From: Naegleria gruberi
Lineage: Eukaryota
Direction: 5' to 3' (one strand)
Length of the DNA: 64,000 bases
Assembly: GCA_000004985.1 (NCBI GenBank)
Contig: GG738894.1
Made by a program: the position numbers and the translations under genes. This document shows, one piece after another, positions 3,001 through 50,320 of this stretch (positions within the stretch are counted from its first letter, which is position 1; every line of letters starts with the position of its first letter). The notes under the pieces are model-generated. The model saw nothing but the letters and a program-made list of their open reading frames with translations. It did no database searches and had not been told where the DNA came from.

Positions 3001-6000
3001 NNNNNNNNNNNNNNNNNNNNNNNNNNNNNNNNNNNNNNNNNNNNNNNNNNNNNNNNNNNNNNNNNNNNNNNNNNNNNNNNNNNNNNNNNNNNNNNNNNNN
3101 NNNNNNNNNNNNNNNNNNNNNNNNNNNNNNNNNNNNNNNNNNNNNNNNNNNNNNNNNNNNNNNNNNNNNNNNNNNNNNNNNNNNNNNNNNNNNNNNNNNN
3201 NNNNNNNNNNNNNNNNNNNNNNNNNNNNNNNNNNNNNNNNNNNNNNNNNNNNNNNNNNNNNNNNNNNNNNNNNNNNNNNNNNNNNNNNNNNNNNNNNNNN
3301 NNNNNNNNNNNNNNNNNNNNNNNNNNNNNNNNNNNNNNNNNNNNNNNNNNNNNNNNNNNNNNNNNNNNNNNNNNNNNNNNNNNNNNNNNNNNNNNNNNNN
3401 NNNNNNNNNNNNNNNNNNNNNNNNNNNNNNNNNNNNNNNNNNNNNNNNNNNNNNNNNNNNNNNNNNNNNNNNNNNNNNNNNNNNNNNNNNNNNNNNNNNN
3501 NNNNNNNNNNNNNNNNNNNNNNNNNNNNNNNNNNNNNNNNNNNNNNNNNNNNNNNNNNNNNNNNNNNNNNNNNNNNNNNNNNNNNNNNNNNNNNNNNNNN
3601 NNNNNNNNNNNNNNNNNNNNNNNNNNNNNNNNNNNNNNNNNNNNNNNNNNNNNNNNNNNNNNNNNNNNNNNNNNNNNNNNNNNNNNNNNNNNNNNNNNNN
3701 NNNNNNNNNNNNNNNNNNNNNNNNNNNNNNNNNNNNNNNNNNNNNNNNNNNNNNNNNNNNNNNNNNNNNNNNNNNNNNNNNNNNNNNNNNNNNNNNNNNN
3801 NNNNNNNNNNNNNNNNNNNNNNNNNNNNNNNNNNNNNNNNNNNNNNNNNNNNNNNNNNNNNNNNNNNNNNNNNNNNNNNNNNNNNNNNNNNNNNNNNNNN
3901 NNNNNNNNNNNNNNNNNNNNNNNNNNNNNNNNNNNNNNNNNNNNNNNNNNNNNNNNNNNNNNNNNNNNNNNNNNNNNNNNNNNNNNNNNNNNNNNNNNNN
4001 NNNNNNNNNNNNNNNNNNNNNNNNNNNNNNNNNNNNNNNNNNNNNNNNNNNNNNNNNNNNNNNNNNNNNNNNNNNNNNNNNNNNNNNNNNNNNNNNNNNN
4101 NNNNNNNNNNNNNNNNNNNNNNNNNNNNNNNNNNNNNNNNNNNNNNNNNNNNNNNNNNNNNNNNNNNNNNNNNNNNNNNNNNNNNNNNNNNNNNNNNNNN
4201 NNNNNNNNNNNNNNNNNNNNNNNNNNNNNNNNNNNNNNNNNNNNNNNNNNNNNNNNNNNNNNNNNNNNNNNNNNNNNNNNNNNNNNNNNNNNNNNNNNNN
4301 NNNNNNNNNNNNNNNNNNNNNNNNNNNNNNNNNNNNNNNNNNNNNNNNNNNNNNNNNNNNNNNNNNNNNNNNNNNNNNNNNNNNNNNNNNNNNNNNNNNN
4401 NNNNNNNNNNNNNNNNNNNNNNNNNNNNNNNNNNNNNNNNNNNNNNNNNNNNNNNNNNNNNNNNNNNNNNNNNNNNNNNNNNNNNNNNNNNNNNNNNNNN
4501 NNNNNNNNNNNNNNNNNNNNNNNNNNNNNNNNNNNNNNNNNNNNNNNNNNNNNNNNNNNNNNNNNNNNNNNNNNNNNNNNNNNNNNNNNNNNNNNNNNNN
4601 NNNNNNNNNNNNNNNNNNNNNNNNNNNNNNNNNNNNNNNNNNNNNNNNNNNNNNNNNNNNNNNNNNNNNNNNNNNNNNNNNNNNNNNNNNNNNNNNNNNN
4701 NNNNNNNNNNNNNNNNNNNNNNNNNNNNNNNNNNNNNNNNNNNNNNNNNNNNNNNNNNNNNNNNNNNNNNNNNNNNNNNNNNNNNNNNNNNNNNNNNNNN
4801 NNNNNNNNNNNNNNNNNNNNNNNNNNNNNNNNNNNNNNNNNNNNNNNNNNNNNNNNNNNNNNNNNNNNNNNNNNNNNNNNNNNNNNNNNNNNNNNNNNNN
4901 NNNNNNNNNNNNNNNNNNNNNNNNNNNNNNNNNNNNNNNNNNNNNNNNNNNNNNNNNNNNNNNNNNNNNNNNNNNNNNNNNNNNNNNNNNNNNNNNNNNN
5001 NNNNNNNNNNNNNNNNNNNNNNNNNNNNNNNNNNNNNNNNNNNNNNNNNNNNNNNNNNNNNNNNNNNNNNNNNNNNNNNNNNNNNNNNNNNNNNNNNNNN
5101 NNNNNNNNNNNNNNNNNNNNNNNNNNNNNNNNNNNNNNNNNNNNNNNNNNNNNNNNNNNNNNNNNNNNNNNNNNNNNNNNNNNNNNNNNNNNNNNNNNNN
5201 NNNNNNNNNNNNNNNNNNNNNNNNNNNNNNNNNNNNNNNNNNNNNNNNNNNNNNNNNNNNNNNNNNNNNNNNNNNNNNNNNNNNNNNNNNNNNNNNNNNN
5301 NNNNNNNNNNNNNNNNNNNNNNNNNNNNNNNNNNNNNNNNNNNNNNNNNNNNNNNNNNNNNNNNNNNNNNNNNNNNNNNNNNNNNNNNNNNNNNNNNNNN
5401 NNNNNNNNNNNNNNNNNNNNNNNNNNNNNNNNNNNNNNNNNNNNNNNNNNNNNNNNNNNNNNNNNNNNNNNNNNNNNNNNNNNNNNNNNNNNNNNNNNNN
5501 NNNNNNNNNNNNNNNNNNNNNNNNNNNNNNNNNNNNNNNNNNNNNNNNNNNNNNNNNNNNNNNNNNNNNNNNNNNNNNNNNNNNNNNNNNNNNNNNNNNN
5601 NNNNNNNNNNNNNNNNNNNNNNNNNNNNNNNNNNNNNNNNNNNNNNNNNNNNNNNNNNNNNNNNNNNNNNNNNNNNNNNNNNNNNNNNNNNNNNNNNNNN
5701 NNNNNNNNNNNNNNNNNNNNNNNNNNNNNNNNNNNNNNNNNNNNNNNNNNNNNNNNNNNNNNNNNNNNNNNNNNNNNNNNNNNNNNNNNNNNNNNNNNNN
5801 NNNNNNNNNNNNNNNNNNNNNNNNNNNNNNNNNNNNNNNNNNNNNNNNNNNNNNNNNNNNNNNNNNNNNNNNNNNNNNNNNNNNNNNNNNNNNNNNNNNN
5901 NNNNNNNNNNNNNNNNNNNNNNNNNNNNNNNNNNNNNNNNNNNNNNNNNNNNNNNNNNNNNNNNNNNNNNNNNNNNNNNNNNNNNNNNNNNNNNNNNNNN

Positions 6001-12836: not shown

Positions 12837-15800
12837 TTGTTTCGGACCGGTAGAACTATTCATGAATATTGGCAACTTCCACCAATCAAAGGATCCATGG
12901 AAGGACGCACCTCTGCGGAGGTTCATTTATGTTATCTTGCAATATCCTGTTCATGTTCAAATGAGACAATTAAATTGGTATATAGGGCAACACAGGAGGC
13001 AACAATAGAAATTAGAAAGGCACCAAAAAAAATGCACAATATTAGTATCTCCTATTGGTGTGTTGTGATATTGTTATTCATCTGTTTTGCACAACCTTTT
13101 TTACTGCAGAGGAGTTGTGTTGTTGTTGCAGAGGAGTATCAATTACATTCCCTGACAGGACATAAAGGAAATGGACAAGATTTTGACAGGACATTCTCTG
13201 CTAAACATGCCTTTCTGGCAGAACCGTGTGGAATTTGTTTTGGACTAAATGATGAAATTTACATTTCAGATTGTGTAAGAAACTATATTTTCAAGATATT
13301 TCCAAATGAAAGTATGATTGTGTTTGGAGGGTTGGGCAGTACGGGATTCAATCAGGATGGTTATGATGTAAAACAAACTCTTTTCGACTCTCCTTCATCA
13401 TTGAGTGTGGCACCTAATGGTGATTTATATATTGCTGATACGAACAATGATAAGATTCGTGTGGTTTCGGCGGAGACAAGATTGGTTTCATCATTGCCAT
13501 TCACTTTCAAACATCCATTGGGAGTGTTTGCTTCCTCTAACAACATGCTTTATATTGCAGGTAAGTTGTCTTTTGCTATTTCATACGAAACCAAAATAGA
13601 TACTGGAAACAATATGATAAAGAAATATGATATTTCCCAAAAGGTATTGACAACTATTGCTGGAGGAACTGGTTATTTGGATGGATCATATGATAATGTT
13701 GATGGAAATTCAATCATTCTTCACTCACCAAAGAATATTCATGTTGTTTCGAGTGGTAAAGATGACACTGTTTATTTCACTGATGAAGAAAGACTAAAAT
13801 TAATTGATAGCAATGGAAAATATCGTGTGATTGCCATTCCTGAACTTAAATCCAATTTGTAAGTGTCCACTGCTTTTTTTATTGTTCATTTTACAATTCA
13901 AATTCACAAAGATATGGAATAGCTGTAACATCAGCGAATGAAATATGGACATCTTCAGATAGACAACATTTCATTCAAATGAATTCCATTGGATCTTCAC
14001 AACCTTCAACAATTATTGGTGAAAAAGATTCTTTTGGATACGAAGGTGATAATTTGATTGATTCCTTTTCGAGTGTGAGATTTTATGAACCTCGATCTTT
14101 GATAGTGAAAGATTCAATTATTCTAGTTATTGATAGGTATAATAATTGTGTGAGAAAGATTGATACACAGAAAAAGACAGTTTCAACATTCTCTGGAGGA
14201 TTAATTAATCATTCATATGGTGAAGACATTCCCAGATTTGAGGTGTCACCACTCAATACATTATATAGACCATTCACATACAAGAATGAGTTGTACTTCA
14301 TAGAGCAAAATTATATAATTAGAAAGGTTTCGAACAATGATGGGCTTATCAAGACAATATTTGGATCGGGTATTCAATTGAGAACTGAAAATTCACCAAC
14401 AAGAGTCTTTAGGTATATCGCAAGTGTTTTCTGTTTTCCAAATGGAGATTTAGTAATTACTAGTTCAAACGAATTCTATATTCTCAATTTAGAAACATTT
14501 ACAATGCAGAAAATTACTAATGTTGGCCCCAAGACAATTCTTTCAATTTCAGCAATAGTTGGCATTGGGAATTCTTTCAAGAATAGCACTATATATTTCT
14601 CCAATGAAGGTACTATTTACAAATATCAGAATGAAAGTGTTCAAGACTCCATGCCAACAGGTTTGGTGCCATCTAACCTTGCAATTTTGAACAATGATTT
14701 ATACTTTTCTACATCAGGATATCTTGTAAAAGTTAATTGGAACGAAACTACTACTTTGATAGCCGTTCCAAGGGGTGTTAACAGGATATCACAAGATTCC
14801 AAAACTGGAAAGATTTATCTTTCCAATACATACAGACTCTACGAAGCAAACGTAAGTAATTTCAGAGTTGAAAAGGTTGCTGGTGTCGATCCATTTGAAT
14901 ATTCTGTTGGGAATAGCATTGATTTTTTTGGATATAGTGGTGAGAATGTGAATGCTAACCAATCGGTAATGTAAGTAGCTCTTTTACAAATGTTATTCGA
15001 AATATTATGTATCAATTAGCTCTGTTTCTTTTATACATGCTGACAATGATAATGTTTATCTCTCTACTGCTTCCTCATACATACGTGTGATATATAATGG
15101 AGTTGTGCGCACTGTTGTGGGAAGTAGTCCATTTTCGAAAAAAACTGGAAGAACCCTATATTCATTTTGTAGAGATCCTATTAATGAAATTATTTACATG
15201 TTGGACAATAATGTGTTGAAGAAGTATGATGAGAAAACAGGAGAAGTTACATCTCTTCTGCCAGCTGTTGAAGTAATTTCATCAAATTCGTTAGTTCAAA
15301 CAAGTGCTTCTCCTTTTTTAGCAATTAAACCAAAGACTGACACGAAAATGATATTCTCAACATTTGATAACATGATATATTTCTCTGATTATTGTAGAAT
15401 ATTACAAATTGACCCAAAAACATTGAAATATCAAAAAGTGGCGGGAAGTATGTGTGGAGATGTAATACCAGATATTCCAGCTATACAATCTCCTTTACCT
15501 ACAAATCCCCCAAAAGGCCTTTCAGTTAATCCTGTAAATGGTGATCTCTACATTAGTTATGCTGATTTTTTTGGAAAGCTTGAAAAGACTTCAGGTATGA
15601 TTCGTGCATTATTTAGGAGTTTTCCATTTAGTCCAATAGAACCAAGTGATGGTCATGTTGGAAATAGCACTTTTATTGGGACGATCTCAACTTCCTATGC
15701 CATTAGTGATCAGACAATTTACTTTAGCACAAATACAAAAATTAGAGTTTTGGAGCTAGCTCAAAATGGTTCATACTACCTCAGAACTATTGTTGGAGAT

Positions 15801-17422
15801 GGGAATGGCGGATATTCAGGTGATAATTTACCTGCATTGAGTTCATCTGTACAAAACCCAAAGGCATTCCATGTTAAAAAGAATGGGGATATTGTATTTG
15901 TGGATGAAGGAAATTACCTTATTAGAAAATTTGTAAAAGCAACAGGTCTATTGAAGAATATAGCAGGAAAACCTCGTCAAATGACAGGTTATTATTCAGG
16001 AGAGTTGAAAGGGCTAGATACAATCTTTATTAATTTGGGATATTCATTTAGTTTCAATGAGAAAACAGAAGAAACTATTTTTTCTGAACACTCAGTTATT
16101 GACACATTCCTTATTAGAAAGCTTTCTCCTATCTGTGAAGGAGGAGCACGCTTCAATTCATTCAATAATACTTGTGACTGTTTGAGTGGATTTTATGGAG
16201 AGAAATGTCAAGCAATTACTTGCAATGGAACAATATCATCAGATGCAACAAGTTGTAATGGAAAGGGAACTTGTGTTGAATTAGATGTTTGTGAATGTTT
16301 GAATGGATTTGAAGGGCAGTATTGTGAAAAATCTATTGACAAGTTGGCAACCGATCAGTCAACAATTTTGATTGTTTCCATTGTCATTCCTATTCTTGGA
16401 GTAGGTCTGATTATCGTGATATTGATTGTAATTATTGTCATAGCATTACTACTTTTCAAAAAGAAGAAATCAAAGGAAATTAATGAAATTGCAACTGCAA
16501 ACATTGTGGAAATGTCAGAATTTCCAAGTAGTTCAATCATTATTTCATCATCACTTGGTTCTGACATGTCAGAAAAGGAAGACATACTTTCTAGGTATAT
16601 TAATATGATTAGAGTTGGGCAAGGCGCATTTGGAAGTGTTTTCAAAGTGACAGATACAAAGAGTGGAAATAAGGTAAAAGCAATCAAGATTGTGAGATTT
16701 GAATCATTCACCGATTTGAACACAATTATGAAAGAAGCATCTCAATTGAGTAATATCAATCATCCAAATATATTGCGAGTGAATGATTATTTCATCACTA
16801 ATGACAATTTGCTTTGTATAGATATGGATTATTATGAGAATGGTGACTTGACAAGGTTTACAAAGAAGGAAATATGTTCTGAAGATATTATTCGCAAGAT
16901 TATGAAACAAATGTTAAGTGCATTGAATTATGTCCACTCAGAATTGTCAATCATTCATAGAGATATCAAACCTTCAAATATTTTTATTCGAAAACTTTCT
17001 GGAAATGACATTGAAGTTGTTTTAGCTGATTTTGGATTGGCTAAAAAGTATCAAGAAATGAAAGGTCAATCCTATGCTGGAACTCCACTTTTTATGAGGT
17101 TTGTTTTATAATTATGCATTAGTTTTAAACTTTTTAAAGTCCTGAAATTGCACTGGGCAGCTCATATTCATTCAATACTGATATTTTCTCACTGGGAGTT
17201 TCGATTTATCAAATCATGACAAAAGACGAAACCATTCCTATTGGAAATTTATTGATGGGAAATCAATTAGCAAATGCAGAAGCCATTCTCACCCAACAAA
17301 TGAAACAGAATACTAGTTACTCGAATGAATTGATTGAAATTGTTATGAAAATGTTGGATAAGAATCAAGAAACTCGATCAAGTGCTGTTCAACTTCTTCA
17401 AATGCCTTATTTCAAACACTAA
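12837..17422 (+). CDS. Receptor-like Ser/Thr protein kinase with NHL-repeat ectodomain and EGF-like Cys-rich modules (4 exons)
   Basis: Exons 12837 (first ATG; more likely signal-peptide ATG at 13032, MHNISISYWCVVILLFICFAQP)..13858, 13912..14970, 15020..17098, 17140..17422. Introns of 53, 49 and 41 nt start with GTAAGT/GTTTGT, end in AG, and each restores frame across an ORF-track stop. NHL-like repeats (YIADTNNDKIRV, DNDNVYLSTASSYIRV). EGF-like CxC stretch (CDCLSGFYGEKCQAITCNG...CECLNGFEGQYC). TM segment ILIVSIVIPILGVGLIIVILIVIIVIALLLF. Kinase motifs VKAIKIV, HRDIKPSNIF, LADFGLAKK, GTPLFM|SPEIAL spanning the last intron, DIFSLGVSIYQIMT. Confidence 0.8.
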
Positions 17423-17526: not shown

Positions 17527-18660
17527 CTAATAGCTCTCTGATTTGTTGAACTTATTTGCTCCCCACAGTAGTGAATTCTCATGATTTAGTCCTTGATCAC
17601 CAATTCTATTGCCACGAATATTAAGTGATGTTAATTGTTTCATTTCACTTATATATTTGGCTCCTTCTACACCAATTCGATTGCCACGAATATTAAGTGA
17701 TGTTAATTGTTTCATTTCACTAATGAATTTGACTTTGCCACAAATATTAAGTGATGTTAATTGTTTCATTTCACTAATGAATTTAGCTCCTTCATCACCA
17801 GTTCTATTGTAAGAAATATTAAGTGATGTTAATTGTTTCATTTCACTAATGTATTTGACTCCTTCTATACCAATTTCATTTTCAGAAATATTAAGTGATG
17901 TTAATTGTTTCATTTCACTAATGAATTTAGCTCCTTCTATACCAATGAGAGTGTAATAAATATTAAGTGATGTCAATTGTTTCATTCCACTTATATATTT
18001 GGCTCCTTCATCGCCAATTATATTGTAAGAAATATCAAGTGATGTTAATTGTTTCATTTCACTTATATATTTGGCTCCTTCATCGCCAATTTCATTTTCA
18101 CGAATATTAAGTGATATTAATTGTTTCATTTCACTGATATATTTAGCTCCTTCATCACCAATTACATTGTAAGAAATATTAAGTGATGTTAATTGTTTCA
18201 TTTCACTGATATATTTGGCTCCTTCTACACCAATTCGATTGCCACGAATATTAAGTGATGTTAATTGTTTCATTTCAGTTACGAATTTGAGTTGTTCTAT
18301 GGCTTCCAGCAAATTTGTTGAAAATTTAACATCAACAATACTATTCATAAACTGACTTTTCATGAATAATTCAACTCGTTTCTCTGTAATGTTGTTTTTA
18401 AATTGAATAACAAGTTTTGAACGTTCCTTGATCACATTAAAGAATTGTTTTGAAATTAAAGTACAATTATTTAAAATAAACCACGAATCATCAATCATGC
18501 AAATTATTTCAAAACAAATATCATCTGAAAATATTTCTTGTTCGAGTTTCACATGCTTTTTTACTTTCTCTTCCATATTATTATTATTATTGTTAGTGAA
18601 TATTTCCTCCGAATTAATTAATTGATGATTTTCAAAATCTTGTCTGTTTCGTTTGCTCAT
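17527..18660 (-). CDS. Leucine-rich repeat protein (LRR_RI-type, 24-aa repeats GAKYISEMKQLTSLNISYNVIGDE)
   Basis: 377-aa ORF. About 10 tandem 72-nt repeats each encode one LRR. The N-terminus (DICFEIICMIDDSWFILNNCTLISKQFFNVIKERSKLVIQFK) is F-box-like. Paralog of 49469..50320. Confidence 0.8.
   Translation of the reverse strand: MSKRNRQDFENHQLINSEEIFTNNNNNNMEEKVKKHVKLEQEIFSDDICFEIICMIDDSWFILNNCTLISKQFFNVIKERSKLVIQFKNNITEKRVELFMKSQFMNSIVDVKFSTNLLEAIEQLKFVTEMKQLTSLNIRGNRIGVEGAKYISEMKQLTSLNISYNVIGDEGAKYISEMKQLISLNIRENEIGDEGAKYISEMKQLTSLDISYNIIGDEGAKYISGMKQLTSLNIYYTLIGIEGAKFISEMKQLTSLNISENEIGIEGVKYISEMKQLTSLNISYNRTGDEGAKFISEMKQLTSLNICGKVKFISEMKQLTSLNIRGNRIGVEGAKYISEMKQLTSLNIRGNRIGDQGLNHENSLLWGANKFNKSESY
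17590..18290. repeat. Tandem 72-bp coding repeats (LRR units) inside the LRR gene
   Basis: Recurring ...gttaattgtttcatttcact(a/g)at(a/g)(a/t)atttggctccttc... units are visible on the plus strand. This is protein-coding periodicity, not a CRISPR array. Confidence 0.7.
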
Positions 18661-27301: not shown

Positions 27302-28036
27302 ATGTATATGCATAACTTGAGTAGAGTTATTACAATAATTCCAAATGATTCTGTGGAATTATTGTCGAATAATAGTAGTAATATCACGAATCAAAGTGCT
27401 ATTTCTGCTACTACCATTAATAATGGTGGAAATGTAATAAATAATGATGATTCGGATATTGATACATTGGTGGATGAAATTGTAAATGGAGAACAAGTGG
27501 ATGAATACTTTTTTAATTGTGCAGGTTTAATTTCGAATTTGGAATATGTTAAACAAGTGATAGAAAAGAAGAAAACTGGAAATTTGATTGATTTGGTTTG
27601 TTTCACATATGAATTTTTTATTGGAATGTTTTTGTGTTTTGGATATTTTTGAAAATAATTGAAAAATAGATGGGTAGGAATATATTACATCATGCCTGTA
27701 AATGGGGAAACTTGAATATTGTCCAATATGCCATTTCGAAAGGAGTTTCGGTTAATTTGAAAGATATCCATGGAAACACTCCAATTCACTTTTGTTGTGA
27801 GGAAGGTTATACTGATATTGTGACGTGTTTACTTCATCATCCAAATATTAAAGCAACATTGAAGAATAAGGTAAGAACAATCTCATTTCCATAACTAATA
27901 ATTCTTATGAAACCTTTCGAATAATTCTAAAATTTAGGACGGTGCAACACCAAAGAGAAAGGCTCAATATTCTGGCTATTCAAACGTAGTTCTCTTACTG
28001 GAAAGATATTTGGGCAATATTTATGTAAGTTGTTGA
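27302..28036 (+). CDS. Ankyrin-repeat protein (3 exons)
   Basis: Exons 27302..27595, 27670..27870, 27938..28036. The 74-nt and 67-nt introns start with GTTTGT and GTAAGA. The joined product has ANK repeats (GRNILHHACKWGNLNIVQYAISKGVSVNLKDIHGNTPIHFCCEEGYTDIVTCLLHH, DGATPKRKAQYSGYSNVVLLLERYLG). The 3' end is less certain: an alternative GTAAGT donor lies at 28025. Confidence 0.65.
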
Positions 28037-28382
28037 ATATTTTCACAAATTTCGTTTCGAACTATTTTCATTAGCTGTTTAAGGAAAATTTGAAAAATCA
28101 AGTAATTGATGTTGAGGAAACTTATTCCAACTACAAATTGAGTGATATTTCAATAAGGATAGTTGATTAAAAATTTAATTACCCTTTGATCTTATTTATT
28201 GTAAAAACATTACAATGAAGAGTTTCATTCTCCCAGAAGGGAAATATTGAAAAAATCTTTTTCCACTGACCACAGTATTGTTGTAATCAAGATCAGAGCG
28301 AACTCTAAAAGTCCATTGAATATATCGCCACCACCTTTCATCTTGTGAAAAATAATATCATCACAAAAAAACGAGTTTAGAG

Positions 28383-31300
28383 ATGGTTATTATTCGAAAG
28401 GTTTACTTGTCTAAACCTTGGTGGTTATTTGTGCTACTGTTTAGCTGCATCGTTTTCACAATACACAACAACAACCTTGTTCATTCTAAATCGCCTTCTC
28501 TATACATTCCACAAGTTTCGGATACAAGCCAGACTAATAACATTCCATCTTCTCTATCATCAACAAGTTCCACCTCATCGGATAAATGTAAAACAACTAA
28601 TCCCTTCATATTTTCCCTTCCTACACCATTCTTTCACTGGGCAGAATCGGATTTCAATAACATTGGTTCGAAAGCTTTTTATGAAAATAATTGTTTACAA
28701 ATTGAACAAGTAAATAGATATAATGGATATATTCCATATGATCAAGTCAAGAAATCTCTCACCACCACTTCGACAACATCTAATATTGCAGAATTTTTAA
28801 TCATTGACGATTATTCACTTTTCAAATTGTGGAAAGACAATATTACAAACTTCAAGCTCATTTCACAATTTGCCAAATCAACGAATCTAATTCTAATGTC
28901 CAAGAAGGAAAAACAAATTACATCGATGAGAGATTTGAAAAATAAGAAGGTTGCTGTTTGTCAACATCATTTGGAATATTTGATTTATGAATTATATAAA
29001 CTAGGAATGAGTTTGAGTGATATTAAATATGAGATTGTAAATTATGACCTCATGTATATGAGGGTTTTATATGAAGATATTGATGCATACTTTGTGGATG
29101 ATCGATACATTTTCACACAAGTGAGAAAGACAACTACAACTCTTTATTATCCTAGAGAGTTTAATATTATTGAATCATCACTCAATTATACAAAGGATGG
29201 AATCAACATGTTCAGATATGGTATTATTGTGAAAGATAATCCAAGTGTTAGTGGGCTTGAAGAAATTACAAGAAGATTCTTACTGACACAAACTCAAATG
29301 TACACCTTTTGTAGAGATAATCCTTTGGAGTGTTTTGAAAGATGGGTCGTCTATGATTACATGATTGATAATTTGAACAATTTATTGTGGCCTTCTATTG
29401 ATGGTTTTGGAAATATTAGTAGAGTTTCAATTACAAATTCAATGTCTATATATTTGGGAAGAAATCCAACTTCAACAGAATCAAAAATATTTATCAACCA
29501 GTTTGTCAATTCAACCATAATGGATGAGATTATTTCGAATTGTACTGATAATTTGTGTACAGGCATAGATGGATCTGTATTGAATATTACAGGACTTGCC
29601 TATTCAGATGCAACTCCAACATTTTGTGAGGATTACATATTCCCATATCCACTCTCTTGTAAGAGATATTACTTGTACTTTAGATTGTACTGCTCATTTG
29701 TTCCATTCCTTATTGGTTCCCTAATTAATTTGATATTTGCTGTCATTGTTCCATTCATGAGAAGTGAACACTTGATGAAGCATCGTTTCATAGCCCCATT
29801 TGTAACACCAGTTTGCTTTTCAGGATTTTTACTCTTCTCTGCTATATTATTTTGCAGGTTTTCCTATTTTCCTGAGAATGTCATTTACGGTTTGGCAAGT
29901 GCCTGTATCGTTACAGTTATTATTACACGTTCCATGAATGTGATTCGTTACTTTTATGTGAGAAATATGTTCAAGCTCATGAAAAAGAGGAATAAGAATG
30001 AAAATAATGGATCAGCATACAATTTCTCAATGAAAGAAGATAAGGAAGTATTGGATAGGAATATTCGGTTTCACAGAGTTGCAGCATCCAAATTGGTCTT
30101 TGTTATTATTTGGATAGTACTGGTAGTACTTATTGCTCCGTCATTTTTCATAGCTCAATACTATGCTCCGGAGAATTATATTATAAGAAATGGAATTTCC
30201 ATTATTGTCTATGTATTGGCAACATTTTTCATGGTTTTCCTCTTTATTTTTGATTTGATTGTTAATAGAAAGAGATTGAAAAAGAGAGGTTTCATTTCCT
30301 TCATTCTATTCGACGATCCACTATTGTACAGATTGGAATTATTATTGTGTGGGTTTGAATTGATTTCAATTGTTTGGATTTCTCTCAGTGATTACTATGT
30401 CTATAACATTGCTGCCTTCTCTGCACAAGCTGTTGGTTTCCTTTCTTTGGGCCTTTCTGGTGCTGTAACATGGTCTTATGGATTTGCAGCAGCTGTCATT
30501 CTCTATAGACGTGGCAAGAAGTTTATCATGTCCAAAGTTTATAGAAGAAGAGCAATGAAAAGTAATTCAAACCTCTCTACAGAATTGAGTGGAAGTGCAA
30601 TCCAAGCTGATTTCTTGGAAAAGTTAATTGAAAATGATGATTTTTATTCTCTTCTTGAAGGTATGTTATAGATTGAATAGTTACGAATTTAATGCTTGTA
30701 TAGATTATGCTAAGAAGGAATTCTCATCGGAAAATCTCTTCCTTTACAATGTAAGTTTTCATTAACTCAATCCTCATTTACATGTTCAATCTTTTTGGCA
30801 ATAGATACTGAGACAATATAGAAAAAGGAGAGAACTCTACATTTCGGATTTACTGTTCATTTACAATAATTATGTAAAGAATTATTCACCATTTGAAGTG
30901 AACGTCTCCTCTGAAACTAAGAAGAGCGTTAGAGAAATTCTCTACACTTACCATATGATTGAGTCAGCAACTTCTAAAGACAGATTCTCTAAAAGAATCA
31001 CCCAATTTCCAACAGATATTTTCCCAAATTATGATTCATTCTCGGGAGCTACTCCTTATCAGGCCTTTGATGATGTTCATTCATCGCCAAAACTTGCAAG
31101 TAAGGCGACCATGCCACCTTCATTTCAGAATAACAACTCTCCAATGATGGGTCGATTTAAAGATAGTTTCAGAAAGCTATCATCTGTTTCAGATAGTGAA
31201 GCAAGTAGGGGGGATGATCTTGTTGGAGATGACGCAGATATAGGATCAGATCAAAGCAGAACTCCTAGAAGAAGTACTGTAAGTGGAGGGGGACCAGTTA

Positions 31301-31449
31301 TTCCATTCAATCAAATTCAAGCACTTTACAATGATGTTACACAGAATGTTATGGATACTTTCAGTAGATTATGTGAAACGAGTGAATATCAGCAATGGGA
31401 ATCCCTTAATAATATGGCATTGTTCATCTCCAATAAGGAATTGGCTTGA
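28383..31449 (+). CDS. Solute-binding-protein-like ectodomain + multi-TM + C-terminal RGS domain receptor (3 exons)
   Basis: Exons 28383..30660, 30704..30750, 30805..31449; the two introns begin GTATGT and GTAAGT. N-terminal signal/TM segment. The ectodomain resembles bacterial SsuA/NMT1-type periplasmic binding proteins (RDLKNKKVAVCQHHLEYLIYELYKLGMSLSDIKYEIVNYD...DIDAYFVDD). At least 7 hydrophobic helices lie between ~29650 and 30480. The RGS hallmark spans the introns (DYAKKEFSSENLFLYN|ILRQYRK..., SPFEVNVSSETKKSVREI). Confidence 0.75.
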
Positions 31450-31587: not shown

Positions 31588-31660
31588 CGCCCCACGTGGG
31601 GCTCGAACCCACGACCGTTGGATTAAAAGTCCAACGCTCTACCGACTGAGCTAGCAGGGC
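31588..31660 (-). tRNA. tRNA-Lys (anticodon UUU)
   Basis: The reverse complement GCCCTGCTAGCTCAGTCGGTAGAGCGTTGGACTTTTAATCCAACGGTCGTGGGTTCGAGCCCCACGTGGGGCG folds as a cloverleaf. The acceptor stem has 7 bp including 2 G-U pairs. D-loop AGTCGGTA, anticodon loop CTTTTAA, T-arm GTGGGTTCGAGCCCCAC, discriminator G, 73 nt. It closely matches eukaryotic tRNA-Lys-UUU. Confidence 0.9.
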
Positions 31661-34085: not shown

Positions 34086-37000
34086 ATGCCTCAAAGTAGA
34101 ACAATTACACCAAATTTTCCCTCCATCAACATGTTCCTATTTCATCGAGAACCGTACTTTTTAGATTCGAGTGAGGATAAAAATCGTATTCAAATCAACA
34201 ACAAGAACAATAATAGGGATGATGGAGAAGCAAAAACAATATTAAGGATGAGAAGTTTGGATGAAACTGTGCGGGATGATGATACGCATTCTTCTTCAAT
34301 ACATCATCAAGAAGCCTTGGAACATGTTTTTGGTAAGACAAGAACATCTTCCGCTACAACGAGAACAGTATCACAAAATTCAAGGAATACTAATTATTTT
34401 AATGCTAATACAATAGCAAAAAGCGAGAATAACAACAACTACAAGAAAAACCTTATTAATCACCTGATAATATTATTATTAATTACACTCTTAGTTGTAC
34501 TTCCAACCTTTGTAGAGTGCCTACATCCATTCGCCACATACAATTGGAACAATGATGATGAGATTTGGTTTGCTCAGTCGGCACCATTTTCTGGCCCTAG
34601 TAGCACAATTGGGACAGGTAAGTAGTATCAACATGTAAATGTTCTATAGTGAGTACTTTAATTAGAATTGAGAAATGGAATATTAGCTGCTTTTAATGAA
34701 ATCAACTCTGTTGGAGGTATATTCGGAAAGAAGAAGCTGAGATTGATCAGTATGGACGATGGCTATGAACCACCCAATACAGTTCGCAACATTAATAATT
34801 TTCTGAATGGAAACAAGACAATATTTGGATTTATTGGAGTGGTAGGCTCACCCACTATTCTTGCAGCCTATGATTTGGTAGTGTCGTCTGGTCTTCCTCT
34901 GATTGGAAGTTACACAGGAGCTACATTTTTGAGACAGCCCTTTCATGCAAATTTTGTAAACATTAGACCATCATACTATGATGAAACAGCTGCAATTATG
35001 GATGTATTGATTGGAAAAAACATGGCGAGGAAAATATCAGTCCTTCATCAAGATGATCCTTTTGGAATTAATGGATATGAAGGAGTTAAACGTATACTTG
35101 ACCATATGGGAATTCCAATGTGTTCATCAGGAAGTTATCAAAGAAACACACTCAACGTTGAGGATGCATTCTACAAGATTGCAAAGTGTGATCCAGATGC
35201 TATTGTTGTAGTGGCACTGTATGCACCAGCAACAAAATTCATCAAAATGGTTACCAACTCGACCCTTTACCGAAAGGATATTTTATTTGCAGCAACCTCA
35301 ATAGCCAGCGATTTAATTGTAAAGGAGCTAGGCCCTGAAATTGCTCCAAGAGTTCTGTTTTCACAAGTTGCCCCTTCTCCAACAGATACATCCTCGACCC
35401 TTGTTAAATCTTTCATCACCGCAAGGAAATCAATAGATTCTAATTTTACACAAGGTACATTTATTGAAATAGAGGGATATATTGCTGGAAAAATGACGTA
35501 TCACTTGCTCCACAGAATAATTGGATACATGTCCCCCAGTAACATGCTGACTAATCTTTACTATTCACAAGAAGTTATGTTTGACAATTTGAAATTAGGA
35601 CCATTCTCTTCAGTGTCTGTCAAGGATCCTGTTTACCTTATTCAAACAAATTTTTCCACTCAATTTGATTGCAATCAAGGCTCAAAATCAGTTTGGAGGA
35701 CGAAAGCTGATTCTAACTTGAATTTCTATAATTATGCACCTCCATTTTCATGGTACACTTCTGGCACATGTATTTCAACCCCAGGCGATGTCATCAATCC
35801 AATTTTATTAGCACAACTTGTTTATAACAATCTAGGATCTTCTAATACCTATCTCACTAACGGAATTAAAGCCGCCTTATCCACTGCATATGTCCAGGGA
35901 AGACCTATACATCTACTAACTCGCACTTACTCAGATTTCCAATCTCTTATTTCCACCACTCAAGATCTCGTTGAAAACTACTATATTACTGCATTGGTTG
36001 GATCTTCTGGATTGGGAGAAGTTATTAGTTTAAATACTTCCTCTATTGATCTATTCAGAGAGATATTTAAAACATCCTTCCCACATATTCCTCTGATTGG
36101 AAGTGTAGTTGACAATCCGTCAATCATGTCAACAACTGGTTCGTTGTTTATCCCATCCATGGTAAACATTAGAAGTACAATCATTGAGGAAATTGGAACT
36201 TTGCTTCAACATGCATTCAAAAGAGGAGTTACCAGAATATCAATAGTGAACTGTCCTGCATACGTCCATATCAACAAAATTTTCAAACTTTTAATGTCAA
36301 AATTGCAACTAACAATTGAGAGTGAGCATGGATGCTCAGATACCATTCTTTTCGATAGCATCTCGATAAACCCACAAGTGGTTCTAGTAGCATGTGCATC
36401 TGCCATTCTCCCTGGAACTCTTTTAAAGTTGGATGCAAGTAGTAATCTTAGACAAGATGCATTGTTTTTTGTTTTGGAAGAGAAGAAAAAGCTAGTCTTG
36501 TCAAGCCTTGAGAGTGGACCTAAAGGTGTACAAAGACCTATCTTATATAGTTCTTCATTCCCAGATCCAAAAATCTCGGCCGTAACCATTGTTTCAAGAT
36601 TTAAATCAACTACACCGCCTCTAACAGATCTTTCTGGGTATTATTCTTCTGATTTGGCTCTTGAAGGATATTTTATTGGAGAGTTTGTTGGATCAATATT
36701 GGGATCAGTTGCAGATTCAGCACCCTCAATAACAGGTCAGGCAATTATTGACTTTATATACAAAAGTCAACAGATAGTGGTGAGAGACCAAAAGTATGGA
36801 TACTTTATTAGAGACAAGAAAAATTCATTGTGCAATATTGGGTCGAGAACAAGATTTCTATTCCAGATAAGAAATTGTTCAACCTCAATACTATCAACAA
36901 CAGGTTTCCAACAACAATCATGTTGTTTACAATCTGTTTTAGAGGATTCCAGTACCCTCAACTTTAGAAGACCAATGCAGTTCGTTAGATTCAAACCAGG

Positions 37001-39125
37001 AGACACTGAACAACTTACCATCGAAGCAATAGATGATTTTGCAAAAGGAGTAATATCTTTCATTAATGATATTAATACCATGGGGAAATATTCATTTGCC
37101 TTTCAATTTCTTACTCAAACTTTTAATGGATCTTCTGATATTCAAATGTTAGCTAACGATTTAACCTCTAAACAGCAAATATTTGGTGTTATCGCTCCAG
37201 ATGTAGATTATGACATTGAAATGTTTACGAACATTAGTTTACCAATTATCGGCCCCAAAACTGCTAACATGCAATACAGAAATTACAAAAAAAATGTAAT
37301 TAACATCTACCCTTCCTTAATAGATGAAATCTTCAATTTGGTTGAATTTTTCCTAAAATTTAGTGACGCAATTACTATTGTTTATGAGTCCTTGGATGTT
37401 AATAATTATGCTCAACCCCAGGTATTGAAAACTATCCAAAATATAATAACTAACAGACAACTTTCAAGAGTTTCCCTCACTTGTATGACTTGTGTCAGTG
37501 ATCAAGCAGGGTCAGTAATAATTATGGCAGAAACAGAAGAAATCATTCAGTTTATTAGAGCAAATCAGAAGATAATGAACAGAGTTGGTTTGATTTCAGA
37601 AGCATATGAAGAGCATGATGATCTTAAAGAGTTGTTGTCCCTTCATTCGAATGTTTACATGTCCACTATAGTATCCCTCACAACAGAAATGACGGGATTT
37701 GTGGAATCTGAATTCACAAAGCATTTTCAAGTTTCGTTTCCAAACGACGTGCCAACAATAGAGTCTATAGATGGTTTCGTTTCCTTTTTGTTTGTTGAAA
37801 AAGTATTTGAGTCATTCTTAGATAGAATACAACCAAGACAACAACAGGCTTTCATTGACAAGATATATAGTCTCTCTGTTTTAGATATTGGTGACATTAC
37901 TCTTGGAAAGTTCACCAATACCTGCAATCAAGGAACAAGAAGATTGTACGTTAGCAGATTTTCCCTTAGTAACACAAGTGAAGTCATAACAGTCACAGAA
38001 CCAAACAGTCTTTTCACAATTTCAACATGTGGGTATAACTTCCCTTCCCCTGCAGTCATGGATTATCTTTATTATATTCTAATTTCTATATTGGCTATAA
38101 TTTTTTTGATTGTAGCCATGGGAATATCAGGTTTATTAATTTACAGACAGTATAAGGCTAAAAAGTCACACCTTCATGCTCCAAAAGGAGGAGTCATTTC
38201 TTTTGCGTTTACTGATATTCAAAATTCTACTGTATTGTGGCAATACAATGAGAAAGCAATGAAATTAGCTCTTGCTATACATAACAAGATAGTTAGGGAT
38301 AATATTAAGAAATACAGAGGTTACGAAGTCAAAACTCAAGGGGATTCATTCTTTGTTGCTTTTAGAAAGATAGAAGATTGTATTAATTGGGCATTCTCTG
38401 TTCAAAGTGATTTATTGAAAGCAAATTGGCCATCTGATATTATTACACAGTATGATTGTAGACCAGAATTTGAGGAAGGAACAAAAGTTTTGATTTATTC
38501 TGGTTTGAGGGTAAGAATGGGGCTTCATTGTGGTCAAGCTGAATATATTTTTGATAAGACTGTGAAAAGACCAGATTACTTTGGCAACACCATTAACCAG
38601 ACTGCCAGAATTCAAGCTCTTGCAAGAGGAGGAGAAATATTATGTAGTGAGGCCATGTTACAAGAAAGCAAATATTTATTTAAAATTTCTGGCCCAAGTT
38701 TCGAGGAGGAATTGTCGCATCAATCCTTAAACATACCAAGAAGAAGCTCTGAATCCACATTGTCAAAGAAGCGTAGATCAGTTGTTCCTGGATCCAATCC
38801 AATCTATACAGCCGAAGATTTTGGATATTGCTCCCTAAAAGGTATTAAGGAGGAAGTCAGAGTCTTTACACTTAAAAATAATGATATGAAACTTAGAGTT
38901 TTTCCACCTATTGGAAGATACAAAAATATTGAGGAAACATCGAACAATACCTTGCGATCGATTGCTTCCGTTCCAACATTTGAAACATCAAGTATCAATG
39001 GAGATGATATCATTGTGCACATTCCTGATCAAGCATCAGACAACCAAAAGAGCAAACCTGAACGGTTGAACACTCAAGCGATTGAACTTCCAGAGATTAT
39101 GATTTCTGGTGTAGATAATAAATAA
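34086..39125 (+). CDS. Receptor-type adenylate/guanylate cyclase (periplasmic-binding-protein type-1 ectodomain, single TM, class III cyclase domain; 2 exons)
   Basis: Exons 34086..34617 and 34666..39125, with a 48-nt GTAAGT...AG intron. Exon 1 encodes the signal/TM segment LIILLLITLLVVLPTF and the start of an ANF-receptor/LIVBP domain, which continues in exon 2 (GILAAFNEINSVGGIFGKKKLRLISMDDGYEP...GFIGVVGSPTILAAYDLVVSSGLPLIGSYTGA). TM helix MDYLYYILISILAIIFLIVAMGISGLLIY. The cyclase catalytic core includes ISFAFTDIQNSTVLW, YEVKTQGDSFFVAF, VRMGLHCGQAEY and FGNTINQTARIQALARGGEILCS. Confidence 0.85.
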
Positions 39126-46793: not shown

Positions 46794-49100
46794 TTAAAAG
46801 TCATATAATTCATTTTCCTTTTGAAGTTCTGTGAGTTTGAGCCACTTTTTGTACTCTGCTGTTTCCTCAAGTCTAGAAAAGGTATCAGATACATTCTTAA
46901 TGACTTCAAAGATGAGGATTTCTCTCAATTCAGAGTAAGGGATTGAGTTTGCAGTTGGTGTTTGCTCACAAACTTGTTTCTTCTCTTCAAACCATTTGTA
47001 AAATGCCTTTTTAGTAGAGTTTGGAAAATTGACCTCAAACTTGGAATAATTTCTCATATAGAGCTCTTCAATTTGGGCAGCCTGTTCGAAAGTTAAGAAT
47101 GAATCTGCAGAATTGACGAGGGAACTTGAACTAAATGTTCGTGAGGTTCTTGAATTGGATGTAGGCAATGAGTCAGTAGATGCTCCCATACTTGATTTCG
47201 ATCTATCATTACCTGAAGATGGGCTTTTCTTATTCTCCAATGATATTAACATTTCATATAACATTACATTTTCAATTGAAAATTCCTTCTTTGCAAACTT
47301 TCTCAATAATTTCATCAAATTCACATCTTCCAATCTGGATTCCAATGTTCTCTTTCCTTTTGGTTCATTGCCTCTGTTTGAAGAAAGTAATTTACTTATT
47401 TTTCTATAAATTTCAATAATCATTGCACTTCCACCAAGAATTAAATAACAAGTCAATGAAAATAGAACTGTCAATACTCCAATGGCAAATTGATTATTAT
47501 ACACTAACAGGGTGATAATTGTGAGTACGAGGAGTAAAAATATGAGTAACAAGTCTATCTTGATATAGAACGGATCATCAAAGAAAAAGTAGTAGTATAT
47601 TCCTTTCTTTTTGATCTTTCTTCGATTTCCAATCATATCCAATAGCAAGAATATTAAACCAATTACAATACATAGAATAATGACAGCACCAAGAGGTGCA
47701 TTTCTGAAATATCCCAAATAGGAAGTAAGGTAAACTTCTTTTTCTAGTATCATGAGAACCGAAGCTCCAAGAGGAATAAAAGGTACTGTTACACTTGTAA
47801 CTAATCCTAACCACTTCTTTCCCAAAAACTTGAAAAATTTGAAATGATCAGATTTTGAAATTATTGTAAACAAATTTCTCAGATAGAAATATCTCACAAC
47901 TGTTATAAAATACAGGAATACAGGATACATTACAACTGCATTGGCTATTCCATTATACAATCGAGTGCAATTGGCAGTAAATACCATAATCTGGAAAATG
48001 TTTCGCATAATAACAAAGAGTGGGCAAAGGTATGGAACAGCCAATCTAATTTTGATGGATTTAGTATTAAATGTCAATAACAGACCAATATAGTAGATAC
48101 ATAGAAAAAAAATTGCATAAACACCTTGGATTTCTTCATATTTAACAGGTTCAAAGGCACAGGTGGAGGATGAACATTCATATACTTCACTGTTCATGTA
48201 AGAAAGGGTGATATTGGAGATTCCAATACTTGAAATTGTTTCGTTTGTATACAATGTGATTTGAGGGTAACTGCTTTGAAGATATTTCACAAAATTATTA
48301 AATTCGAAACTAGAATTTGATAGAGAAATTTTTGATGACCTAAACAGACAATAATCGTGATTCAAATAACATGAAGTACGGTAAGAATCCCCTTTCACTT
48401 CTTCTCTGCACAATCTAATTAATGAATCACATGTTGTAGTGAAGTTGTTAAAATAATCAGTGACACATGAGATTTGGTTTTGATCTAGACTGTTGGAATA
48501 TGAAAAGAACAATGGTGCCAATCTCACAACATTTAAATCTTCAACCTGTAGGTATCTACCTAGCTTGTTATTTCCTCTAATCAACCTCAAAACCTTTGGC
48601 ATTTCTCTGTCAGTTGTTATGATAATTGGACCTTCATTTGATGACCAATAATCAACAAGAATACTTCCAAACACGCAATCAGAGTTGATTCTAACAGCTG
48701 AAAGAATGGAAATAGGTTTGATATCAGCATATGCAGAAGTTGAAATATTATAAATTTCTAATAATGTGTTAAAGGAACTTTCTAATATTTTCAATCGTTG
48801 GTCGGAAACTGAGTAAAAATCAGAATTTGGAGTAAATAGAATGATTCTCTTGTTTTCAAATAGTGATCTTGGTGTAGTAGTTGAATAACCTTTAAGAGCT
48901 ATTGCAATAATAGTTTCATTGGACGAAACTATCTGAATTGGTTGTTGACCATAAATTTCCTTCAATTGACCAATACTCGCTGTCTTTAACCCACAACTAC
49001 AAATCACACAGTGTAGTTGAACTAAACACAACACCAATGAAATCGTAAAGCTGATGTGCATGTTTTTTTGACTTTTCGTTTGGCAAATCTCACATGTCAC
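46794..49100 (-). CDS. Solute-binding-protein-like ectodomain + multi-TM + C-terminal RGS domain receptor (paralog of 28383..31449)
   Basis: 768-aa single-exon ORF. Signal peptide (MHISFTISLVLCLVQLHCVIC), SBP-like ectodomain, a block of ~7 hydrophobic helices, then an RGS domain (FAKKEFSIENVMLYEML...NYSKFEVNFPNSTKKAFYKWF...IFEVIKNVSDTFSRLEETAEYKKWL). Confidence 0.75.
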   Translation of the reverse strand: MTCEICQTKSQKNMHISFTISLVLCLVQLHCVICSCGLKTASIGQLKEIYGQQPIQIVSSNETIIAIALKGYSTTTPRSLFENKRIILFTPNSDFYSVSDQRLKILESSFNTLLEIYNISTSAYADIKPISILSAVRINSDCVFGSILVDYWSSNEGPIIITTDREMPKVLRLIRGNNKLGRYLQVEDLNVVRLAPLFFSYSNSLDQNQISCVTDYFNNFTTTCDSLIRLCREEVKGDSYRTSCYLNHDYCLFRSSKISLSNSSFEFNNFVKYLQSSYPQITLYTNETISSIGISNITLSYMNSEVYECSSSTCAFEPVKYEEIQGVYAIFFLCIYYIGLLLTFNTKSIKIRLAVPYLCPLFVIMRNIFQIMVFTANCTRLYNGIANAVVMYPVFLYFITVVRYFYLRNLFTIISKSDHFKFFKFLGKKWLGLVTSVTVPFIPLGASVLMILEKEVYLTSYLGYFRNAPLGAVIILCIVIGLIFLLLDMIGNRRKIKKKGIYYYFFFDDPFYIKIDLLLIFLLLVLTIITLLVYNNQFAIGVLTVLFSLTCYLILGGSAMIIEIYRKISKLLSSNRGNEPKGKRTLESRLEDVNLMKLLRKFAKKEFSIENVMLYEMLISLENKKSPSSGNDRSKSSMGASTDSLPTSNSRTSRTFSSSSLVNSADSFLTFEQAAQIEELYMRNYSKFEVNFPNSTKKAFYKWFEEKKQVCEQTPTANSIPYSELREILIFEVIKNVSDTFSRLEETAEYKKWLKLTELQKENELYDF

Positions 49101-49371: not shown

Positions 49372-49426
49372 GGGGTGTAGCTCACATGGTAGAGCACTTC
49401 TTTAGCATGGAATCCACACATGAGCC
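49372..49426 (+). pseudogene. tRNA-Ala(AGC)-like 5' fragment (degenerate, no intact acceptor/T arms)
   Basis: GGGGTGTAGCTCACATGGTAGAGCACTTCTTTAGCATGG matches the 5' half of eukaryotic tRNA-Ala (acceptor 5' strand, D arm, TTAGCAT anticodon loop). The downstream sequence (AATCCACACATGAGCC) cannot form a T arm or pair with the acceptor strand. Confidence 0.35.
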
Positions 49427-49468
49427 AAAGTCGGAAGAAAAAGAGTAAAAAACACTAATTTAAAAAAA

Positions 49469-50320
49469 ATGAGTAAACTTAACAGACAAGATTTTGAAAA
49501 TCATCAATTCATTAATTCGGAGGAAATATTCACTAACAATAATAATAATAATAATATAGAAGAGAAAGTAAAAAAGCATGTAAAACTCGAACAAGAAATA
49601 TTTTCAGATGATATTTGTTTTGAAATAATTTCAATGATTGATGATTCGTGGTTTATTTTAAATAATTGTACTTTAATTTCAAAACAATTCTTTAATGTGA
49701 TCAAGGAACGTTCAAAACTTGTTATTCAATTTAAAAAAAAATTTACAGAGAAACGAGTTGAAATATTAAAGAAAAGTCAATTTATGAATAGTATTGTTAA
49801 TCTTAAATTTTCAACAAATTTGTTTGACTATTTTGAAGAAGCAAAATTTATAAGTGAAATGAAAGAATTAACATCGCTTAATATTAATGGCAATGTAATT
49901 GGTGCAGAAGGAGCAAAATTCATCAGTGGAATGAAACAATTGACATCACTTAATATTTCTTACAATGTAATTGGTGATAAAGGAGCTAAATTGATAAGTG
50001 AAATGAAACAGTTAATATCAATTAATATTTCTTACAATAGAATTTGTGGTGAAGGAGCTAAATTCATAAGTGAAATGAAACAATTGACATCACTTAATAT
50101 TGCTAACAATTCAATTGGCGATACAGGAGCTAAATTCATCAGTGGAATGAAAGAATTAACATCACTTGATATATATAATAATAGAATTGGCAGAGAAGGA
50201 GCAAAATACATTAGTGAAATGAAACAATTGACATCACTTGATATTGGTGGCAATCAAATTGGTGATGAAGAAGTAAAATTGATAAGTGAAATGAAACAAT
50301 TGACATCACTAAGAAAATAA
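49469..50320 (+). CDS. Leucine-rich repeat protein, paralog of 17527..18660
   Basis: 283-aa ORF. The first ~120 codons are ~90% identical in nucleotide sequence to the 5' end of the minus-strand LRR gene (MSKLNRQDFENHQFINSEEIFTNNNNNN...DICFEIISMIDDSWFILNNCTLISKQFFNVIKERSKLVIQFK). The same 24-aa LRR units follow (GAKFISEMKQLTSLNI...). Confidence 0.75.
   Translation: MSKLNRQDFENHQFINSEEIFTNNNNNNNIEEKVKKHVKLEQEIFSDDICFEIISMIDDSWFILNNCTLISKQFFNVIKERSKLVIQFKKKFTEKRVEILKKSQFMNSIVNLKFSTNLFDYFEEAKFISEMKELTSLNINGNVIGAEGAKFISGMKQLTSLNISYNVIGDKGAKLISEMKQLISINISYNRICGEGAKFISEMKQLTSLNIANNSIGDTGAKFISGMKELTSLDIYNNRIGREGAKYISEMKQLTSLDIGGNQIGDEEVKLISEMKQLTSLRK

Follow-up and report, generated by a model that had tools for sequence, protein, structure and literature searches.

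Known 7TM-RGS proteins and the receptor of Naegleria gruberi

Naegleria fowleri has 28 proteins in which an ectodomain is followed by seven transmembrane (7TM) helices and a C-terminal regulator of G-protein signalling (RGS) domain (Nf 7TM RGS1-4 and 24 others), and some of its G-alpha subunits activate themselves (PMC9283941, Bosch et al. 2022). The isolated RGS domains of three of these proteins are selective GTPase-activating proteins (GAPs) that bind transition-state G-alpha, a switch-I Gly→Ser mutation blocks the action of N. fowleri RGS on G-alpha, and the effect of extracellular cues on the GAP activity is stated by the authors to be unknown (PMC9283941). The present analysis concerns a gene of the same genus-level family in Naegleria gruberi, located on contig GG738894.1 (assembly GCA_000004985.1) within a stretch of 64,000 nucleotides (the window), whose product combines a predicted solute-binding ectodomain of bacterial type with a 7TM region and an RGS domain. 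The N. fowleri ectodomains have been described as EGF-like repeats, lectin or GPS (adhesion-type) modules, with no mention of a solute-binding-protein ectodomain (PMC9283941), and the RGS domain of the N. gruberi receptor further differs from theirs in being broken by an insert of ~110 aa.

Three other kinds of receptor invite comparison. AtRGS1 likewise has a 7TM region with a cytoplasmic RGS domain that is a GAP on a self-activating G-alpha, and its regulation by glucose, through phosphorylation and endocytosis, has been proposed (PMC9283941); AtRGS1 is without a folded ectodomain and its ligand-binding site was never defined, whereas the N. gruberi receptor has a predicted flytrap. The class C G-protein-coupled receptors (GPCRs), namely mGluR, CaSR, GABA-B and T1R, follow the same logic as the N. 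gruberi receptor, with a flytrap derived from a bacterial periplasmic binding protein (PBP), a cysteine-containing linker and control of heterotrimeric G proteins by the 7TM region, but their flytrap is of type I (ANF_receptor/LIVBP-like) rather than type II and NMT1-like, and their output is that of a guanine-nucleotide exchange factor (GEF) with no fused RGS domain, the sign of signalling being presumably opposite. None of the Pfam families ANF_receptor, NCD3G and 7tm_3 matches the N. gruberi receptor even at E ≤ 10, which places it outside class C. In GPR158/mGlyR, a metazoan class C receptor unrelated to it by sequence, the ectodomain controls an RGS GAP instead of acting as a GEF, much as proposed here, but there the RGS (RGS7-Gβ5) is a separate protein recruited in trans and the ectodomain is not a flytrap (PMC8611064).

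The spliced gene encodes, in order, a signal peptide, an NMT1-type PBP ectodomain, a two-cysteine stalk, seven hydrophobic helices and a split RGS domain (Table 1), an architecture that is kept, introns included, within Naegleria. The product is probably a plasma-membrane 7TM-RGS receptor whose type II flytrap came from a bacterial ATP-binding cassette (ABC) solute-binding protein (SBP) of the NMT1/ThiY/SsuA kind, and whose GAP activity would be modulated by a ligand. Its N-terminus is signal-peptide-like by inspection, the hydropathy profile showing a basic n-region followed by a 15-residue hydrophobic core (WWLFVLLFSCIVFTI), as the initial annotation had proposed.

A solute-binding ectodomain of the NMT1 class

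The ectodomain had been annotated as an SsuA/NMT1-like periplasmic-binding-protein fold, with profiles of two families, PF09084 (NMT1) and PF00497 (SBP_bac_3), named as the means of checking it. Pfam NMT1/THI5-like does match the spliced protein, by a small margin (22.1 bits against a cut-off of 20.5, aa 160-237), and NCBIfam returns a weak SsuA_fam match at the same place; SBP_bac_3 has no match at all and was rejected. What follows upholds the assignment to the NMT1/SsuA/ThiY class (class II) of PBPs, from Pfam, hhalign and Foldseek, but the nearest characterised proteins are 4nmy and ThiY, not SsuA.

An exhaustive search of 1.84 billion representative proteins was made with a profile of the three Naegleria ectodomain sequences. 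At E ≤ 1e-3 it recovered 12 proteins: two Naegleria clusters and ten others (E 1e-6 to 9e-4), eight of which carry a strong PF09084 domain (Pfam E 5e-14 to 5e-44) while the remaining two are short fragments. These relatives align along nearly the whole Naegleria ectodomain; the motif CRDNPxxC...N.LIWPS..G.G is common to all, appearing in N. gruberi as FCRDNPLEC...NNLLWPSIDGFG in a segment with six N-glycosylation sequons, and the positions Q162, D213, R311, N332, W336, P337, G341 and G343 (protein numbering) are invariant. When the Naegleria-only profile was compared by hhalign with one built from 15 non-Naegleria relatives, the two matched with a probability of 99.5% (E 2e-22, 256 columns).

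Structure prediction agrees with this assignment. The AlphaFold2 (AF2) model of aa 67-430 (mean pLDDT 75.7, pTM 0.78) has the two-lobe α/β structure of a class II PBP, with alternating β-α-β elements in both lobes, and its best matches in the PDB by Foldseek belong without exception to the NMT1/SsuA group: the thiamin-bound SBP 4nmy (E 2e-12), ThiY (3ix1), SsuA, TauA, Thi5 and NrtA. The Naegleria-only profile has no match among PDB sequences even at E ≤ 10, so the link to solved structures required either intermediate sequences or the predicted model; the profile of the whole family matches 4nmy at 4e-26 and ThiY at 7e-15, a result that places the subfamily closer to binders of thiamin and pyrimidines than to SsuA.

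By these sequence comparisons the ectodomain is homologous to genuine transporter SBPs. The fold is like that of the bacterial NMT1 SBPs of known structure (4nmy of C. difficile, ThiY 3ix1, SsuA 3uif), whose sequences are demonstrably homologous to it, and the closest bacterial subfamily shares both CRDNPxxC and N.LIWPS..G.G with Naegleria. NCBIfam places the bacterial relatives loosely with SsuA/TauA. Two of them lie on high-GC contigs in a gene order of amidohydrolase, aldehyde dehydrogenase, luciferase-like monooxygenase, permease, ABC ATPase, permease and NMT1 SBP, and the permease-ATPase-permease-SBP arrangement marks them as real binding proteins of ABC importers for a catabolic substrate. 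The bacterial SBPs are free or lipid-anchored subunits of such importers, whereas the Naegleria domain, covalently fused to a receptor in a eukaryote, is not an importer subunit, and it has extra loops and glycosylation sites and is missing the GGP motif.

Distribution of the architecture and related ectodomains of protists

The combination of this ectodomain with a 7TM region was confined, in the exhaustive search, to the two Naegleria clusters, and no description of an NMT1 or other PBP ectodomain fused to a 7TM-RGS protein was found in the literature, which bears out the suggestion of the initial annotation that such a receptor is unusual. Word-indexed searches with the full protein, the ectodomain-family profile and the 7TM-RGS profile brought up nothing beyond the three orthologs or a few bacterial SBPs. 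The gene was already known as a database entry and the 7TM-RGS receptors as a class; the combination of sensor domain and receptor, and the wider association of the sensor with several outputs set out below, appear to be undescribed.

Several of the relatives are receptors of other protists, three of them (P0004, P0009 and P0010) from metagenome or Sequence Read Archive assemblies. P0004 (L004, a Joint Genome Institute (JGI) metagenome contig of 35% GC) has the NMT1 domain, one transmembrane (TM) helix and an adenylate/guanylate cyclase domain; P0009 (L006, 51% GC) has PDEase_I exons after an NMT1 domain, a Cys-rich module and a TM helix; and in P0006 and on the contig of P0010 (L005, 39% GC) the same ectodomain is followed by a single TM helix. 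A cysteine pair of the form FCxD...C stands directly before the membrane in the Naegleria 7TM-RGS proteins and in all of these protist receptors; the bacterial proteins stop ahead of this stalk and hence lack it. P0004 and P0009 thus resemble the N. gruberi receptor in ectodomain subfamily, N-terminal cysteine pair and stalk, but have one TM helix and cyclic-nucleotide outputs where the latter has a 7TM region and an RGS domain. From these alignment features and marginally better scores in the exhaustive search, rather than from phylogeny, we infer that these eukaryotic receptors share a sensor cassette, consisting of NMT1 domain and stalk, which became joined to different outputs.

About 3 kb downstream of the receptor gene, an open reading frame (ORF) of 1485 aa (34668-39125, + strand) encodes a flytrap of type I (Peripla_BP_6/ANF_receptor), then another PBP domain, 'Peripla_BP_A-cyclase', and the catalytic domain Guanylate_cyc. 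Its domain content identifies it as a receptor-type cyclase with PBP ectodomains, and both classes of PBP are therefore in use as receptor sensors within one 10-kb neighbourhood of the N. gruberi genome.

The membrane region and the RGS domain

The seven or so TM helices of the initial annotation are accounted for by seven hydrophobic segments, with a strong positive-inside bias: lysine and arginine number 28 in the three intracellular loops (ICL1, ICL2, ICL3) plus the first 30 residues of the tail, and 1 in the three external loops. This distribution is compatible with an N-out/C-in topology, in which the PBP would be outside and the RGS domain inside. The 7TM assignment is based on hydropathy, charge bias and family context; the whole spliced protein has no match to the Pfam GPCR families, and the model of aa 414-989 retrieved nothing below E = 1 in Foldseek, so that no GPCR class could be assigned. 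Nor is there a GAIN/GPS module before TM1: the GAIN matches obtained (15-16 bits against a cut-off of 26.5) were judged spurious, being below the cut-off and in one case within the RGS region.

A second gene of similar design (copy 2, Table 1) lies on the opposite strand of the window. Its 7TM-RGS region is 23-26% identical to that of copy 1, and both copies and the orthologs share the cytoplasmic motifs RYFY.RN after TM3 and NR...KK.G...FDDP after TM5 (in copy 1, RYFYVRN and NRKRLKKRG...FDDP). The ectodomain of copy 2 has no Pfam match and was ruled out as an NMT1 relative (hhalign probability 0.3%), and its RGS-like domain scores 18.4 bits with the insert removed, below the Pfam threshold.

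The RGS domain of copy 1, which had been reported to be visible only after splicing, is indeed matched by Pfam RGS (PF00615) on the spliced protein at 27.6 bits (cut-off 23.9, aa 745-823). Deleting the insert brings the score to 32.7 bits and lets the match run as far as position 100 of the 117 in the profile; the N. lovaniensis ortholog treated in the same way scores 40.6 bits. Against PDB sequences, phmmer finds RGS5, RGS16, RGS8, RGS17, RGS18 and others at E from 4e-4 upward, and in the alignments to the RGS5, RGS16 and RGS8 structures FSSEN stands opposite FSEEN and EVN opposite EVN; a later D..R pair (MDTFSRL against KDSYRRF) was matched by eye. F-S-x-E-N and E-V-N are the segments that hold the principal G-alpha contacts of RGS4 with Gαi1 (Ser85, Glu87, Asn88 and Asn128). 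With seven TM helices ahead of it, a C-terminal PF00615 domain, and both the S/E/N contacts and the Asn of EVN in place, the receptor belongs to the 7TM-RGS class.

The C-terminal helices of the RGS domain (...NVxDTFSRLxET.EY..W) are invariant in the two copies and the orthologs, and no other stretch is as well conserved between copy 1 and copy 2. The insert that separates them from the rest of the domain is otherwise unconserved, with the exception of an island, FK(D/N)SFRKL(S/G) (31156-31185, + strand), that is kept in three Naegleria species and might, by pure conjecture from its sequence, be a regulatory phosphosite of a basophilic kinase.

Gene structure and the public gene model

Read from the ATG at 28383 to the TGA at 31447-31449, the spliced coding sequence is 2970 nt long. 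Unspliced, the frame closes at 30671 (...EGML*) and again at 30765 (...LYNVSFH*), and removing the two GT..AG introns restores it to the TGA; the coordinates and splice sites of the initial annotation are exact, and the junction that it gave, FSSENLFLYN/ILRQYRK, is that of intron 2.

The annotated ortholog of N. lovaniensis (C9374_012153, 1041 aa) is 46% identical over 93% of the query and has identical spliced junctions. The ortholog of a third Naegleria species (P0003, encoded at locus L001), likewise 46% identical, has both introns at the same codons (LLE-G/AT..., ...LYT/KLL...), with lengths of 123 and 65 nt and sequences that differ from those of N. gruberi; it likely belongs to a fowleri/lovaniensis-like species. 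Locus L001 contains an additional intron of ~50 nt (4296-4345) right before TM7, absent from N. gruberi, which indicates that an intron has been gained or lost within the genus.

The public entry for the gene (NAEGRDRAFT_71982, XP_002672888.1, UniProt D2VSL5) is a "predicted protein" of 1161 aa, of which the 3' 945 residues correspond to the receptor. Both 3' introns are present in the JGI model too, but at its 5' end codon 45 of the receptor is fused to an ankyrin gene (27302-~28152) by way of a predicted, unusually long intron (~28153-28519, ~367 nt) that deletes the ankyrin stop codon (28170) together with the start codon and signal peptide of the receptor. This model was rejected as chimeric because no ankyrin homolog was found upstream of the ortholog at L001, where the ORF has a signal-peptide-like segment at the matching place; because the 989-aa model opens with a basic n-region and hydrophobic core; and because a cytosolic ankyrin N-terminus would have the sequon-rich, Cys-rich PBP facing the cytosol and the RGS domain facing the exterior. 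XP_002672888.1 should be divided into two genes and the signal peptide of the receptor restored.

Table 1. Features of the receptor gene, its upstream neighbour and its paralog (positions in the window)
Feature	Position	Strand	Description
Ankyrin-repeat gene, upstream, separate	27302..28170	+	own stop codon
Receptor gene, coding sequence	28383..31449	+	3 exons: 28383-30660, 30704-30750, 30805-31449; 989 aa
Signal peptide (predicted)	28383..28484	+	aa 1-34, MVIIRKVYLSKPWWLFVLLFSCIVFTIHNNNLVHS; hydropathy and inspection
Ser/Thr-rich linker		+	aa 35-66, after signal peptide
PBP ectodomain and stalk	28581..29672	+	PBP aa 67-~410; stalk FCED...C aa 414-426
7TM region	29688..30500	+	TM1-7 aa 436-458, 468-492, 499-522, 569-592, 603-628, 646-669, 681-706
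RGS domain, N-terminal two-thirds	30603..30975	+	aa ~741-832, across both introns; FSSEN and EVN motifs
Intron 1	30661..30703	+	43 nt, GT..AG, phase 1; within first RGS helix region
Intron 2	30751..30804	+	54 nt, GT..AG, phase 0; immediately 3' of FSSENLFLYN
Insert splitting the RGS domain	30976..31311	+	aa 833-944, ~110 aa; disordered, Ser-rich; AF2 pLDDT < 30
RGS domain, C-terminal helices	31312..31434	+	aa 945-985, ...NDVTQNVMDTFSRLCETSEYQQW...
Copy 2 (paralog)	46794..49061	-	intronless, 755 aa: signal peptide, ~290-aa Cys-rich ectodomain, 7TM, split RGS-like domain

Proposed mechanism and alternative explanations

By analogy with the N. fowleri proteins, the cytoplasmic RGS domain would speed GTP hydrolysis on Naegleria G-alpha subunits, and because some of these exchange nucleotide spontaneously, the receptor may keep them off at rest. 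The flytrap would close on a small extracellular molecule and the signal would be relayed by the disulfide stalk and the 7TM helices, so that either the RGS domain changes in activity or access or the Ser-rich insert drives phosphorylation and internalisation, with an altered level of G-alpha-GTP as the outcome. Control of the GAP by a ligand, nutrient sensing included, is a reasonable hypothesis by analogy with AtRGS1 and the N. fowleri proteins. The best guess for the ligand would be a small organic nutrient or bacterial metabolite, since the solved relatives bind thiamin and pyrimidine precursors and the bacterial relatives are encoded in uptake operons.

Several observations weigh against this reading. 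In the native protein the Pfam scores of both the NMT1 and the RGS domain are barely above threshold; the AF2 alignment of the ectodomain included NMT1 proteins, which makes the fold match partly dependent on sequence homology; and the first ~100 aa (lobe 1) fall outside the local hhalign alignment and have lost the GGP motif, a divergence on account of which the binding pocket may be altered. The 7TM region, resembling no Pfam GPCR family, is assumed to couple ectodomain to RGS domain by analogy, the AF2 model of aa 414-989 (from a three-sequence alignment) is helical and of low confidence (pLDDT 48.9, pTM 0.31), and ligand regulation of any 7TM-RGS protein, AtRGS1 included, is still unsettled in the literature.

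The same divergence of lobe 1, into which low-complexity loops have been inserted, and the marginal native Pfam score would fit a degenerate flytrap that binds no small molecule and serves as a structural, dimerisation or adhesion module (other Naegleria 7TM-RGS proteins have adhesion-type ectodomains) of a membrane GAP that is constitutive and answers only to intracellular control, such as phosphorylation of the insert. We consider this unlikely, because the Q, D, R and N positions, the WP..G.G block and the CRDNPxxC pair are kept in all three Naegleria orthologs, the β-α-β order is predicted with good confidence in both lobes, and the ectodomain, 47% identical across species, has diverged about as much as the rest of the protein, which indicates purifying selection. 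Somewhat less probable still is a genuine GPCR, in which a flytrap-activated 7TM region would act as a GEF and the ligand would turn signalling on, with the tethered RGS domain as a terminator or kinetic scaffold. Naegleria does have slow-exchanging G-alpha subunits that would need a GEF (PMC9283941), and the basic, conserved ICL2 and ICL3 (RYFYVRN, NRKRLKKRG) resemble G-protein-coupling loops. In animals, as is generally known, RGS proteins can sharpen signalling as well as suppress it. Similarity to the Pfam GPCR families was not detected, however, no reliable 7TM model was obtained, and GEF activity has not been demonstrated for any 7TM-RGS protein.

Both of these alternatives take the gene to be a single unit, and an artefact of the gene model, in which the PBP-7TM ORF and the RGS exons would be separate genes, is very improbable. 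In its favour, the 5' end of the public N. gruberi model is demonstrably in error. Against it, the two introns that unite the ORF with the RGS exons are short, have canonical ends and, once removed, restore the frame exactly; exon 2, of 47 nt, could not stand as a gene of its own, and no RGS domain can be recognised until the exons are put together; the intron positions and the full architecture recur in two other Naegleria species; and copy 2, which has no introns, keeps 7TM region and RGS domain in this order within one ORF. The reading preferred here is the ligand-modulated 7TM-RGS receptor.

A more far-reaching version of it is offered tentatively, as a conjecture that is rather doubtful at present: the receptor might have evolved independently of the class C GPCRs as their counterpart of inverted sign, with a flytrap captured from a bacterial ABC transporter of the ThiY/NMT1 type directly gating an intramolecular RGS GAP on self-activating G-alpha. 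The eukaryotic cassette of NMT1 domain and FCxD...C stalk, which different protists would have linked to an RGS domain, a cyclase or a phosphodiesterase, might serve to detect a single class of metabolite, bacterial or nutrient, and perhaps similar to thiamin pyrimidines.

Other features of the window

The first 9860 bases of the window are all N, a scaffold gap, so that the real sequence amounts to ~54 kb, with a GC content of about 0.31-0.37. Four proteins encoded in the window by single exons, among them XP_002672889.1, are identical to RefSeq entries of N. gruberi NEG-M that share a scaffold of 499,907 bp. A tRNA-Lys(UUU) gene (31588-31660, - strand) lies 139 nt past the stop codon of the receptor. 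Elongation factor 2 (EF-2) is encoded at 50372-52936 (- strand; XP_002672959.1), as one of at least four near-identical (≥90%) copies in N. gruberi, another annotated copy being on the same scaffold. A repetitive unit is visible at ~49500-50300. A tRNA-like stretch (~49385-49450, GGGGTGTAGCTCACATGGTAGAGC... on the + strand) was rejected as a tRNA gene, with no call by ARAGORN and no match to an Rfam family, and may be a tRNA fragment or pseudogene. Upstream of the receptor, the ORF at 15087-17111 (+ strand) encodes a protein kinase domain preceded by EGF-like repeats and looks, by its domain order, like a receptor kinase; an NHL-repeat ORF (12837-13862, + strand) adjoins it, and leucine-rich-repeat genes lie at 17527-18660 (- strand).

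Significance

For 7TM-RGS proteins the central open question concerns the cytoplasmic GAP: does an extracellular ligand control it, and by what means? A flytrap ectodomain, with its well-understood ligand-induced closure, offers a concrete handle on this question. The receptor and its relatives also show that eukaryotes have recruited a second lineage of PBPs, the type II NMT1 class, as receptor ectodomains, with at least three different outputs. The presence of an ortholog in the fowleri/lovaniensis lineage may bear on chemosensing in a lethal pathogen.

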